A DNA stretch of 64,000 nucleotides from Pirellula sp. (GCA_031372345.1 JANMLD010000301.1:888-64887), one strand, 5' to 3'; positions 56,892 through 60,614 are shown, counted from the stretch's first letter. Notes: generated by a model from the letters alone, not told the origin. Program-made: numbers and translations.

Positions 56892-58319
56892 ATGCAGAAT
56901 CCTGCAGTCCATTGGTCGGAGGGCATGTTTCTCCGACCACATCACTTCCAGGCATCCGATCGCTACTGGTCCGAACTAGCTGGGCGACATACGCAGTTGG
57001 ATCATCCGTATGGATACGGTGTTTCTCAAATTACCATATCCAACGATGCGCTTAATAACGGTGTACTGGAAATTGTGGGTCTGCGGGCACGCATGCGTGA
57101 CGGAACGATTGTTGTACGAGAACCGAACGACGTTCAATCCGTAGATCTTAACACGCGATTGAACCAGTCCCCGTCCAGCAATGCGCCGGTCATGGTTTTT
57201 CTGGCGGTCCCAAAAGCATCTCTCGGACGCGTCAATGTCTCAACAAATAACGGGGACGATCGATCGCGTTATATCGGGATCAAAAGGGAGTTGGACAACG
57301 AGAGTACGGGAACCAGTCCACAGGAAATTGGACTCTTGCAACTGAGGCACAGTATCCTCTTTTCCACGGACGATTTGGCTGGGTTTGAAGTTGTACCGTT
57401 GCTCCGACTGATTCGAAGCGCGTCGGATGGTGCGAAGTTTCGTGTGGATCCAAACTACTATCCACCTTCGATCACCATACAGTCTTGGGGGGAACTCTCC
57501 ACGCTCATACGCGATCTGCGGAATTTCCTGGGGAGCAGAATCAAGACGATGGGAAGCATCATTCAGGACAAGGGTATCTCGCTTGCCACCCAAGTTCAGG
57601 GAGACTTGGAGAAGATACTGCTCATGCACGTACTCAACGAGTCTTACGGCGAGCTGTCTTGCTTGGCATTTGCATCGGGGGTACATCCGCTTGTCGTGTA
57701 CACTTCCCTCTGTTCTATCGTGGGACGCTGTTCCATCTTCGGACCGACCTCTGCAATCGAGGAGGTACCCAAGTACGATCACGACGATTTGGCTTTCATT
57801 TTTCGCTGGGCTTGCGATCAGATTCGCAAGCTGGTCAACGCGGTGAAAGAAGACGAATGCATTCAACGACCATTTATCGGGGCAGGAAAAGGGATGCATG
57901 TCGCCTTGGAACCGGAGTGGTTTGGGCCCGAATGGGATTGGTATTTTGGCGTCAGTCCAGTCAATTTCAGCGTCGAGGAGTGTTACCAATTGCTAAAAGA
58001 GTCGTTGGATTGGAAGTTGGGCGCGTCCGACAAAGTGGAGCAGTACATGACGCACCGGCAGCCCGGTTTAAAACTTCGGGGGGTGCGAGAATTGCCGCGG
58101 GGCCTCTCAAATCGTGGCAAATGGGTCTTCCTGCAAATATCATTAGATAACGAACCGTGGAAGCAGGTACAGCTTTCTCAAACGATGGCCATGCGAGTTC
58201 GAACGGAGCAAATCTCCAATTTGGATTCGCTTGAGGGGAATCGACGGCTCCACGTGACAGTCGGAGGCCAAGCGTATGGCCTGGAGTTCGCAATATTTGC
58301 AGTCAAAAAACGAATCTAA
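56892..58319 (+). CDS. tssK: Type VI secretion baseplate subunit TssK
   Basis: VHWSEGMFLRPHHFQASDR, YGYGV, R.RDGT, YYPPSI and HP..VY..L..IVGR ... PKYDHDDL...F. Confidence 0.92.
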   Translation: MQNPAVHWSEGMFLRPHHFQASDRYWSELAGRHTQLDHPYGYGVSQITISNDALNNGVLEIVGLRARMRDGTIVVREPNDVQSVDLNTRLNQSPSSNAPVMVFLAVPKASLGRVNVSTNNGDDRSRYIGIKRELDNESTGTSPQEIGLLQLRHSILFSTDDLAGFEVVPLLRLIRSASDGAKFRVDPNYYPPSITIQSWGELSTLIRDLRNFLGSRIKTMGSIIQDKGISLATQVQGDLEKILLMHVLNESYGELSCLAFASGVHPLVVYTSLCSIVGRCSIFGPTSAIEEVPKYDHDDLAFIFRWACDQIRKLVNAVKEDECIQRPFIGAGKGMHVALEPEWFGPEWDWYFGVSPVNFSVEECYQLLKESLDWKLGASDKVEQYMTHRQPGLKLRGVRELPRGLSNRGKWVFLQISLDNEPWKQVQLSQTMAMRVRTEQISNLDSLEGNRRLHVTVGGQAYGLEFAIFAVKKRI

Positions 58320-58337
58320 ATGAGCTCTTGAGCATTC

Positions 58338-58985
58338 ATGCAATCAGAATTTGCCAGCGCAGTAGATCCTATTTTTGTGGCTGCGTTACGGTTGGAGTCT
58401 CGCATTGAAAATCGCGACCGGATCGTCACCGCAGACGAGCGCGCGATCCTCATTCGAAAGATCGAGGAAGCCGAAGCCAAGCTTGGACTGCGAGAGGAAT
58501 GGAAGCTTTCTAAATATGCGATTTGTGCATGGATCGATTCCAAACTGATTGAGATACCGTGGCAAGAGAGCGGCTGGTGGAAAGACAATTGCTTGGAAAA
58601 GAAGTTCTTTGGGACCCGAGATGCGCACGAAGAGTTTTTTAAGAAGGCCATTGATGCAGGCAGTCTCCCCAGCAAAAACGCGTTGGAGGTTTTTTACCTA
58701 GCGGTCGTTCTGGGGTTTCGAGGGTTTTACGCGAACAGCGACTTGTCCTATGCTAGGCAGATGTCTCAGAAGCTGCGCGTACCAGATTCCATCGAAGCGT
58801 GGTCGCGAGAAGTCGTTCGAACGCTGCACTTCCGCCAGGGGCGACCAAACATCCCCGGAATGATTCAGACCGGCAGCACCGCGAAACCTCTCAATGGCAA
58901 ATCGATGCTAGTTCTGTATTCCATGTTGGGTTCATTGCTGGTGGCTATTGCCATCGCATGTTTTGTCTTCATTTATTACAAGTAG
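58338..58985 (+). CDS. tssL: Type VI secretion membrane subunit TssL (DotU family), no peptidoglycan-binding domain
   Basis: KYAICAWID..L, W....LE..FF.T..A.EEFF and LEVFYLAVVLGFRG.Y, with a C-terminal TM. Confidence 0.9.
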   Translation: MQSEFASAVDPIFVAALRLESRIENRDRIVTADERAILIRKIEEAEAKLGLREEWKLSKYAICAWIDSKLIEIPWQESGWWKDNCLEKKFFGTRDAHEEFFKKAIDAGSLPSKNALEVFYLAVVLGFRGFYANSDLSYARQMSQKLRVPDSIEAWSREVVRTLHFRQGRPNIPGMIQTGSTAKPLNGKSMLVLYSMLGSLLVAIAIACFVFIYYK

Positions 58986-58994
58986 CATCACATC

Positions 58995-60614
58995 ATGATG
59001 AGCTTTCTCTACGCCTTTGTGCAAACCATTACGACGCCGATTCGTGCGTTTTACTACGTTTTATCCGAACTCAACCCTGGATTTCGCACGGTCTCTCGCT
59101 GGTCGCTGGCGTTTAAATGGGCTTTGCTCTCCTTGACGTTTTTACTGATCATTTGGTTTGCTGCATTCATCATGCATTGGACGGACGATCAACGAAGCGC
59201 CATGGACTGGTTGAAATGGGATTTGATCGCGCTTCCTTTTATATGCGTGATTCCGTTCCTTGTATTCTACTTCGTGAAATACTTGATGATGGTAGAGGTT
59301 TCGCGATACCCCGACATCGATCGCATTTGGACCGAGAGCATTCGCGACGCGGCCAGCAAAGGCATCTTAATTGCGAATACGCCTTTGTTCTTAGTGTTAG
59401 GAGTCAGCAAACAGCGAGAGGCCAGTACGGTGGTCAATCTTATGGGGCTCGATTTCACGGTCCACGTCCCTTCCGCGGGCGAGTCCCCGATATCGGTACA
59501 CGCTTGCAGTCAAGGCTTCTTTGTCTTTTTGAATCAATGCAACTGTGTTTCCCGACTCTCAATGGCCTCCAGCGTCGCTTCGGTATCGAGTCCAATCACG
59601 GAAAACACGGGGATTCCGCCGACGGAGGTCAGCGGAACGATAGATGCGAATCAGTTCGGAGCCATGCGTTTTCCGATGAGCGATTCTGCTGTCGCTTCGC
59701 CGGTAGCCCATTCCTCGCCAATCCAACCAGGCGGGACCATGCTGCTCGACGAAAGCCAAGACATGTCGGAACTTTGGAAAACCGCAGTTACTACGAAACA
59801 ACTGGCTTCCCAAGATGTTGTCGACTGTGAAGACAAGATGCGCCACGTTTGCAAACTCATCAAGAATTCTCGCCTACCTCTGTGCCCAATCAATGGCATC
59901 GTATCGACTCTGCCGTTTGAATTAGTTGAATCATCCAGCGGCCAGCTTCAAATTGCGATTCAAAAAGACCTAGCGATTCTTCGGCAAGAATTGCAGGTTC
60001 GATGCCCCAACACCGCCTTGGTTACCGGCATGGAGACCGAAGATGGCTTCATCGAACTAATCAAACGCTTGCCCCCAAGTCAATCGAGCGAGAATCGTTT
60101 TGGAAAGGGATGTGATCTTTGGGTCGCCCCGGAGGCAGCTAGGTTGGATGCCATCGCTATTCATGCGACGGCCGCCTTTGAAGATTGGATCTACATGCTC
60201 TTTCAGGAAGAGAATGCGCTCAAAAAGCAACACAATTCCCGGTTGTTCATGATGTTGTGTCGTGTCCGAGGTGTTTTTGCAGAAAATCTCCGATCGGTCA
60301 TCTCGCGAGGCTTTGGTTATGATCCCAAAATTGAGCCGCACCTAGCATACGAACAATTCTTGTTCGGCGGATGCTATTTTGCTGCCACGGGATCGGGACC
60401 AACTCAACAAGCGTTTGTGAAAAGCGTCTTTGCCAAGACCCTGCAACAGGAAGGAGAACTTGAATGGGCTCCCGCAGCAAGGCGCGTTGACAATTACTAT
60501 CATTTCCTAGCAAACATAGCGGCTTTGTGTGGGATGATTGCTTTGATCGGGATAGCGGCCATGTTGGTTCACAAATATGCAATCATGCCTGGACAAGAAA
60601 CACCTTTGCCATAG
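58995..60614 (+). CDS. tssM: Truncated TssM/IcmF-like protein (two N-terminal TMs, cytoplasmic domain, third TM, no periplasmic domain)
   Basis: PLFLVLG, PINGIVSTLP, LQVRCPNTALVTGME and FGGCYFAATG align with IcmF cytoplasmic motifs. The protein ends ~12 aa after TM3. It follows tssL by 9 nt. Confidence 0.75.
   Translation: MMSFLYAFVQTITTPIRAFYYVLSELNPGFRTVSRWSLAFKWALLSLTFLLIIWFAAFIMHWTDDQRSAMDWLKWDLIALPFICVIPFLVFYFVKYLMMVEVSRYPDIDRIWTESIRDAASKGILIANTPLFLVLGVSKQREASTVVNLMGLDFTVHVPSAGESPISVHACSQGFFVFLNQCNCVSRLSMASSVASVSSPITENTGIPPTEVSGTIDANQFGAMRFPMSDSAVASPVAHSSPIQPGGTMLLDESQDMSELWKTAVTTKQLASQDVVDCEDKMRHVCKLIKNSRLPLCPINGIVSTLPFELVESSSGQLQIAIQKDLAILRQELQVRCPNTALVTGMETEDGFIELIKRLPPSQSSENRFGKGCDLWVAPEAARLDAIAIHATAAFEDWIYMLFQEENALKKQHNSRLFMMLCRVRGVFAENLRSVISRGFGYDPKIEPHLAYEQFLFGGCYFAATGSGPTQQAFVKSVFAKTLQQEGELEWAPAARRVDNYYHFLANIAALCGMIALIGIAAMLVHKYAIMPGQETPLP

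Follow-up and report, generated by a model that had tools for sequence, protein, structure and literature searches.

We describe a T6SS (type VI secretion system) gene module located in a 64,000-nt stretch of DNA of Pirellula sp. (GCA_031372345.1 JANMLD010000301.1:888-64887), called the window below, with all positions counted from its first letter. The module consists of an operon of tssK, tssL and a short tssM and, on the opposite strand, of the gene of a giant 1405-aa protein with the gene of an exported Cys-rich protein immediately downstream of it. The features of the locus are the following.

56892-58319, plus strand: tssK, 475 aa from its ATG, matching PF05936 and TIGR03353
58338-58985, plus strand: tssL, a short C-tail-anchored DotU-family protein of 215 aa, matching PF09850
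58995-60614, plus strand: short tssM, 539 aa, matching PF14331
56731-56891, no strand: divergent intergenic region of 161 bp between the giant gene and tssK, from the coordinates of the open reading frames
52513-56730, minus strand: gene of the giant 1405-aa bitopic protein, a family conserved by synteny and a candidate periplasm-spanning partner
51009-52187, minus strand: gene of the exported Cys-rich protein, 392 aa, with a lipobox in the window's clade, a candidate periplasmic or outer-membrane partner

The three tss genes form a tight operon with gaps of 18 nt between tssK and tssL and 9 nt between tssL and tssM, so that the coordinates of the open reading frames (ORFs) bear out what had been seen in an earlier reading of the window made by a model (the sequence-only reading). 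The giant gene is divergent from tssK, and this head-to-head arrangement is common to relatives; the 161 bp between the two genes presumably hold a shared promoter region, and a scan for consensus promoters and terminators gave a number of matches no different from that in shuffled sequence. The longest possible ORFs overlap head-to-head by about 200 nt, as tssK can be extended upstream to a GTG at 56748 and the giant gene to an ATG at 56955. Comparison with relatives favours the shorter starts, 56892 for tssK and 56730 for the giant gene, and the N-terminus of TssK, MQNPAVHWSEGMFLRPHHFQ, agrees with all relatives. No RNA run containing the locus was found in expression data.

According to our analysis TssK, TssL and the short TssM are bona fide members of their families. 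TssK matches over its full length and above the curated cut-offs both PF05936 (3e-68, 231 bits, cut-off 23.4) and TIGR03353 (1.7e-74, 251.5 bits, cut-off 100), with profile coverage 1-417 of 429. TssL possesses the DotU cytoplasmic domain (PF09850, 6.5e-23, 81.9 bits, cut-off 27) followed by one C-terminal transmembrane segment, which a hydropathy scan places at residues 192-210 of 215. It scores below the cut-offs of the NCBIfam models and is therefore a divergent member of the DotU family, for which a weak match to NF038239 points to the ordinary short TssL form. Neither OmpA nor another peptidoglycan-binding domain was found in TssL with Pfam and NCBIfam, in agreement with the sequence-only reading; that reading counted the lack of this domain among the features of its module, but it is typical for the ordinary short form and not unusual.

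The short TssM has a hairpin of two transmembrane segments (TM1 and TM2, residues 42-60 and 76-94 by hydropathy), a cytoplasmic domain of about 410 aa and a third segment (TM3, residues 508-526), after which the chain comes to its end at residue 539, about 13 aa further on. The signature of PF14331 (IcmF-related_N) is present at 1.7e-9 and 37.8 bits (cut-off 25), in residues 281-365 only, which span only positions 7-94 of the 259 of the profile. Neither the NCBIfam model of TssM nor the Pfam domains of its periplasmic part (IcmF-related and IcmF_C) match the protein, and a profile search of PDB with it returned only weak Ig-like or chance matches and no TssM chain. The position of the P-loop is occupied by PLFLVLGVSKQ, without GK[ST], and the Walker A motif (GxxxxGK[ST]) is thus absent. 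Hydropathy, sequence and Pfam in this way confirm an earlier description of the 539-aa TssM as ending shortly after TM3 and carrying a degenerate P-loop. Moreover, these properties belong to the whole family: in an alignment of 16 members with 33-63% identity, all 16 have P[LI]FL[VI]LG at the P-loop position and no GK[ST], and all 16 stop at most 12 aa past TM3, the periplasmic C-terminal region of TssM being absent from each of them.

A database search returned 399 relatives of the short TssM, the best 120 of which are almost all 520-575 aa long, with identity falling to 33%, and their named sources are Pirellulaceae, Pirellulales or Planctomycetales. The family, with a length of about 530-570 aa, comprises more than 120 protein clusters, and some of its members are labelled by NCBI as 'IcmF/TssM N-terminal domain-containing protein'. 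When one genome per GTDB species was scanned, relatives down to about 30% identity were found in 177 Planctomycetota genomes; the cultured carriers include Bremerella cremea, Novipirellula herctigrandis, Stieleria magnilauensis, S. sedimenti and S. mannarensis. Rather than a truncation, the short TssM represents a conserved family, and it is the ancestral form across Pirellulales. Conservation of the short form in relatives, on which the sequence-only reading had made its case depend, is established by the 177 species genomes together with the 16 of 16 short members in the alignment.

Purifying selection acts on each of the five genes of the module. In comparison with close relatives (dS 0.18-0.78) the ratio of nonsynonymous to synonymous substitution rates (dN/dS) lies between 0.03 and 0.28, and the five genes are therefore maintained by selection. 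The most constrained of them is tssK (0.03-0.04), and the values for the others are 0.04-0.11 for TssL, 0.06-0.08 for the Cys-rich protein, 0.07-0.12 for the short TssM and 0.24-0.28 for the giant.

In order to see the module in its genomic surroundings, ORFs were called and clustered in 87 related loci, about 1.5 Mb in total (numbered below with the prefix L). In 22 of these loci tail genes (tssA/B/C/E/F/G) occur no more than 10 kb away from the trio, and in 13 VgrG or Hcp does so. In the more distant relatives, with TssM identity of 30-35%, the trio directly adjoins a full set of T6SS genes. In a metagenome-assembled genome (MAG) of Rubripirellula (L086), for instance, VgrG, Hcp and the giant, head-to-head with tssK, are followed by TssK, TssL and short TssM, then by a small acidic protein, a sigma-70-family factor, TssA (ImpA_N), TssB, TssC and a second TssC, and the cluster ends with TagJ (ImpE), TssE, TssF and TssG; the genes of this cluster were confirmed by Pfam at E-values from 1e-17 to 1e-208. 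Closer to the window, at 42-60% TssM identity, the trio is accompanied by VgrG, PAAR or Hcp in L002, L018, L024, L026 and L028: VgrG, an FHA protein, PAAR and DUF4123 come directly after tssM in L002, VgrG and a PAAR-peptidase_C39 toxin stand beside the trio in L018 (Pirellula sp., TssM 60% identical to the window's), and Hcp in L024 and L028. A near-identical MAG, GCA_031409555.1 (L088), has the module arranged as in the window. T6SS sheath genes are widely annotated in Planctomycetota, and a search with a planctomycete TssC profile gave 7997 protein matches, among which the 120 listed all come from other planctomycete groups than the window's clade.

From its contiguity with tail and spike genes in relatives we conclude that the trio serves a real T6SS as its membrane and baseplate-adaptor module, and that the tail, spike and ClpV genes of this genome are probably located elsewhere. 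The 'minimal' stand-alone system proposed by the sequence-only reading has consequently to be given up, because the same trio sits in complete T6SS clusters of relatives and is here presumably split from its tail genes. In the 64-kb window itself, VgrG, Hcp, TssA/B/C/E/F/G, TagJ, PAAR and FHA gave no match to hidden Markov models (HMMs) built from planctomycete sequences and run against the six-frame translation. ClpV was likewise found neither in the window nor within the 10-kb flanks of related loci. Models of TssJ were matched neither by window ORFs of at least 150 aa in a Pfam scan nor by the scanned ORFs of the relatives' clusters, and TssJ and IcmF_C are not among the 25 commonest Pfam families in 62 unassigned neighbouring ORFs (batch scan). 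The claim that no tssJ or tail genes are adjacent stands, consequently, for tail and spike genes; for tssJ it extends to the scanned ORFs of at least 150 aa.

The giant protein has no Pfam or NCBIfam match, and its homologues are recognised over the full length in 49 loci. Its gene lies head-to-head with tssK in 46 of the 60 loci with enough upstream flank, at giant identities from 98% down to about 15%, the lower end being 15-18%. The chain starts with a single hydrophobic helix (residues 28-46), followed by a caspase-like domain (about 50-325), a low-complexity linker (325-390), a helical region (about 390-710) and an array of beta-sandwiches (about 720-1405). In 50 members the mean number of lysine and arginine residues is 3.6 on the N-terminal side of the helix versus 1.6 on the C-terminal side, the former being higher in 41 of the 50. 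Such a distribution suggests an N-in/C-out topology, with about 1350 aa predicted to be periplasmic.

An AlphaFold2 model of residues 1-400 of the giant (mean predicted local distance difference test score, pLDDT, 67) contains an alpha/beta domain whose best Foldseek matches in PDB are the MALT1 paracaspase, metacaspases and caspases (E-values from 7.5e-7 to 1e-3, best probability 1.0, template-modelling scores 0.35-0.56 normalised to the target); Pfam Peptidase_C14 does not match the protein. The residues of the dyad, His139 and Cys195, are both present in the window, and in the family the His is kept in 38 of 50 members and the Cys in 23 of 50. Because the catalytic Cys is kept in so few, the caspase-like domain probably serves as a scaffold in many members. 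The model of residues 380-1405 (mean pLDDT 72) shows a helical domain of about 330 aa and then about seven beta-sandwich domains in a macroglobulin/Ig-like array. Its best Foldseek matches in PDB are the arrays of macroglobulin domains in complement C3 and C5 and in bacterial alpha-2-macroglobulins; the global template-modelling scores are low, as expected of a flexible array. A giant profile of 28 sequences run against PDB gave only weak Ig-like or chance matches and no TssM chain at E up to 1, and TssM is absent from the top 50 Foldseek matches.

A second giant paralogue (giant2) occurs upstream of the Cys-rich gene in many loci, with the order giant2, Cys-rich, giant and then the divergent tssK (L001:3-2000, L002:2-1048, L003:2-1018, L013, L016, L021, L022, L033, L042, L054 and L060). 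The window has one giant copy only, and an HtrA-like protease gene is located at the place of giant2.

The Cys-rich protein of the window's clade has a lipobox (...SFVGC), where the distant members of the alignment have a plain signal peptide. The protein possesses about 10 conserved Cys residues and a small C-terminal beta domain, and in Pfam it has only a weak HEAT match.

From these observations it would be logical to regard the locus as an envelope-anchoring module of five genes that belongs to a Pirellulales-type T6SS, in which the giant supplies the channel and the tail genes are encoded elsewhere. We consider this to be the probable explanation, though with confidence some way short of firm. 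In such a system, by analogy with canonical ones, the cytoplasmic parts of TssL and TssM would be the place where TssK docks the TssEFG baseplate and the tail. In the inner membrane TssL and TssM would be joined by the single transmembrane helix of the giant, whose chain of about 1350 aa, with the caspase-like, helical and about seven beta-sandwich domains, would cross the periplasm, so that a non-homologous protein might supply the periplasmic channel normally made by the C-terminal half of TssM and TssJ. The exported Cys-rich protein may be the distal or outer-membrane partner, perhaps capping the giant. Synteny and architecture thus suggest that the giant and the Cys-rich protein replace the C-terminal part of TssM and TssJ, and the giant is the best candidate for the missing envelope-spanning part. 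We may even speculate that the seven or so beta-sandwich domains and the helical domain could span the planctomycete periplasm, which is unusually wide and variable.

The sequence-only reading had already suggested that the 1405-aa protein perhaps replaces the channel. The protein keeps its place as the best candidate by synteny in 46 of 60 loci and by the N-in/C-out flanks in 41 of 50 members; the replacement itself is deduced, and the protein is missing from the other 14 of the 60.

Several points weigh against our explanation. In these 14 loci, which include Bremerella and the tail-adjacent L035 and L056, no homologue of the giant was found within 10 kb, and the giant is therefore either not obligatory or encoded elsewhere in those genomes. 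The Cys-rich gene accompanies the module in just 20 of 55 loci. In L052 (L052:3308-7381) a 1357-aa protein with one N-terminal transmembrane segment lies head-to-head with tssK and was missed by the HMM of the giant family; perhaps it is an analogue, or else a family member that has diverged extremely far. The periplasmic placement of the giant is deduced from the positive-inside rule and the types of its domains. The AlphaFold2 models of the giant were built on alignments of 11 sequences, and their Foldseek template-modelling scores are modest. Finally, the tail, spike, ClpV and TssA genes were not found in the 64-kb window.

The strongest of the alternative explanations is that there is no preformed periplasmic conduit, the short TssM and TssL anchoring the baseplate only and the giant and the Cys-rich protein being co-regulated neighbours engaged in proteolysis, adhesion or regulation. 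The absence of the giant from the 14 loci, some of them with tail genes adjacent, agrees with it, as does the His/Cys dyad kept in the window's clade, which would permit a protease role, and the gene of a TolC-like outer-membrane efflux protein in neighbouring positions in eight loci. However, the head-to-head synteny of the giant gene and tssK holds from 98% down to about 15% giant identity, the catalytic Cys in only 23 of 50 members argues for a scaffold, and an envelope-spanning partner would need just such a combination of a single transmembrane helix with a very long chain in the periplasm. On balance we regard this explanation as unlikely, while taking it seriously.

It might also be thought that the tail was lost in the window's lineage and the five-gene module was kept for a role outside of T6SS, for example as an envelope complex with other partners. 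The 64 kb contain neither tail nor spike genes, the nearby 10 kb are free of tssB/C in all loci with at least 40% TssM identity to the window, and the place after tssM is taken in close relatives by an FHA protein and by one of at least 2900 aa that is beta-helix-like. Yet the strongest constraint in the module (dN/dS 0.03) is on TssK, for which no role other than baseplate docking is known, VgrG, PAAR or Hcp lie beside the trio in the five loci with 42-60% TssM identity named above, and split T6SS loci have been reported in a planctomycete (PMC2702493), which leaves tail loss improbable.

More improbable still is gene fission, by which the giant would be the diverged periplasmic half of an ancestral full-length TssM. 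Its topology, a transmembrane segment followed by a large periplasmic part, would fit, and so would the succession of a helical part and a beta part, like that of the periplasmic region of TssM. But the giant has no Pfam match to the periplasmic domains of TssM/IcmF, neither the 28-sequence profile (E up to 1) nor the Foldseek top 50 brought up TssM, its first periplasmic domain has a caspase fold absent from TssM, and its gene is on the opposite strand. Finally, the trio might be what is left of a lost T6SS and in decay, or tssM might have been truncated recently; the sequence-only reading had kept this in view, and the isolation of the trio from tail genes in the window could point to it. 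The conservation and selection data refute this explanation, since all reading frames are intact, dN/dS of the trio is 0.03-0.12 and TssM keeps its short length throughout more than 120 clusters, also inside complete T6SS clusters, and we give it hardly any credence.

Returning to the five-gene envelope module, it can be compared with systems described so far. With the canonical TssJLM complex (such as Sci-1 of enteroaggregative E. coli) it shares a canonical-family TssK, a short tail-anchored TssL, the order tssK-tssL-tssM, the N-terminal topology of TssM (transmembrane hairpin, cytoplasmic domain, TM3) with the PF14331 signature and, in relatives, the canonical tail set of TssA/B/C/E/F/G, Hcp, VgrG and PAAR. 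Unlike it, the planctomycete system has no periplasmic channel part of TssM (about 700 aa), no Walker A motif throughout the family and no TssJ detected among the scanned ORFs, and it has the giant and Cys-rich exported proteins conserved alongside.

The T6SS-iii of Bacteroidota builds its envelope complex from TssN/O/P/Q/R, which are lineage-specific and non-homologous to TssJLM (PMC10781749). It is likened to our case by description only, as a precedent for an envelope-spanning complex made of lineage-specific non-homologous proteins; T6SS-iii is without TssL and TssM, whereas TssL and the cytoplasmic and transmembrane part of TssM are kept here and the replacement seems to concern the periplasmic part alone. 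The T6SS of Acinetobacter, unlike the system with short TssM, keeps a full-length TssM with the periplasmic domain. Its likeness to our case lies in a T6SS that has no TssJ and has an extra lineage-specific envelope protein, as the T6SS-i of Acinetobacter works without the TssJ lipoprotein and with such an additional protein (PMC10564176). Neither of these two complexes pairs a retained TssL and half of TssM with a replaced periplasmic part.

A DotU-family protein together with an IcmF-related N-terminal domain is also found in type IVB secretion, as IcmH (DotU) and IcmF. Here, however, TssK is present, VgrG, Hcp and sheath genes are linked to the trio in relatives, and no Dot/Icm genes lie nearby; TssK, the linked tail genes and the score of 15.5 bits with NF038228, the type IVB model of IcmH/DotU (cut-off 50), exclude the assignment to type IVB.

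In the literature, Persson et al. (2009) described in Blastopirellula marina 12 T6SS genes in two genomic locations and noted that it 'lacks ImcF' (PMC2702493), and this report fits a split locus and a TssM too short and too divergent to be recognised. What is already known is the generic annotation of the gene families in public records and the missing IcmF-like gene noted in 2009. In a full-text search, outside of which most subscription journals lie, neither the short TssM family nor its giant partner nor a membrane complex specific to planctomycetes was found to have been described.

The rest of the window is occupied by housekeeping genes, as Pfam scans of 39 ORFs indicate, among them ilvD, a sulfatase, amt, efp, glutamine synthetase, dnaJ, two Ser/Thr kinases, a BatA/VWA operon, asnB, flhA/flhF, hrpB and gltX. 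Two plus-strand ORFs (224 and 257 aa) at 50250-51698, between the HtrA-like and Cys-rich genes, have no counterpart in relatives. They may be spurious, because at the matching position of the near-identical MAG the gene calls give Cytochrome_P460 on the minus strand.

A number of observations concern the neighbourhood of the trio in related loci. In the window's clade (55-95% identity, the closest members 90-95%) tssM is usually followed by an FHA-domain protein and by a Gly/Ala/Thr/Asn-rich beta-helix-like protein of at least 2900 aa without Pfam match (L001:11617-21619, L010:11185-19809 and others). This pair is absent from window positions 60615-64000, and in the window and L088 it is replaced by an ORF of 556 or 539 aa without family match (window 60775-62445) and PAS sensor kinases. 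One genome, GCA_036704275.1, holds two paralogous five-gene modules (L001 and L003), whose short TssM proteins are 55% and 49% identical to the window's, and behind each module lie the genes of an FHA protein and of a giant about 3700 aa long. The gene of the TolC-like outer-membrane efflux protein (PF02321) adjoins the trio in L035:14393-16666, L032, L036, L038, L041, L069, L073 and L087, several of which are without the giant protein; this protein could be an alternative outer-membrane partner, or its presence a coincidence.

In complete Pirellulales T6SS clusters there are two tandem TssC paralogues of about 498 and about 531 aa, both with VipB and VipB_2 domains (L086:14682-17869, and also L046, L052, L064, L076 and L081-L083). 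An acidic protein of 120-160 aa and a sigma-70/ECF-like factor are encoded between tssM and tssA in about 21 loci (L086:11697-12846), neither of them being present in the window, and this suggests a dedicated transcriptional control of the T6SS clusters. The genes upstream of tssK in loci of the Bremerella type (prepilin peptidase, RimK-like, GCS2, FGase) have nothing to do with the system, and ORF clusters 17, 19 and 25, taken at first as conserved unknowns, were rejected as Arg-rich antisense artefacts.

For the TssJLM complex of Proteobacteria it is understood how T6SS crosses the envelope, and more recently this has become true of the unrelated TssNOPQR complex of Bacteroidota as well. We propose tentatively, and with a little less than even confidence, that Pirellulales have a third, independently evolved envelope complex of T6SS, in which TssL and half of TssM dock the baseplate, and the giant with its pseudo-caspase, helical and about seven macroglobulin-like domains forms the conduit together with the Cys-rich lipoprotein. 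Such a complex would account for the old report that planctomycete T6SS clusters 'lack ImcF' (PMC2702493). Annotation tools that demand a full-length TssM and TssJ probably under-call T6SS in Planctomycetota. The cultured carriers in Stieleria, Novipirellula and Bremerella make the idea testable. If it is true, nature would have made an experiment in a lineage where TssL is kept together with only the inner half of TssM: the docking of the baseplate by TssM would be separated from its role as a channel, and the minimal interface needed by TssK would become apparent.

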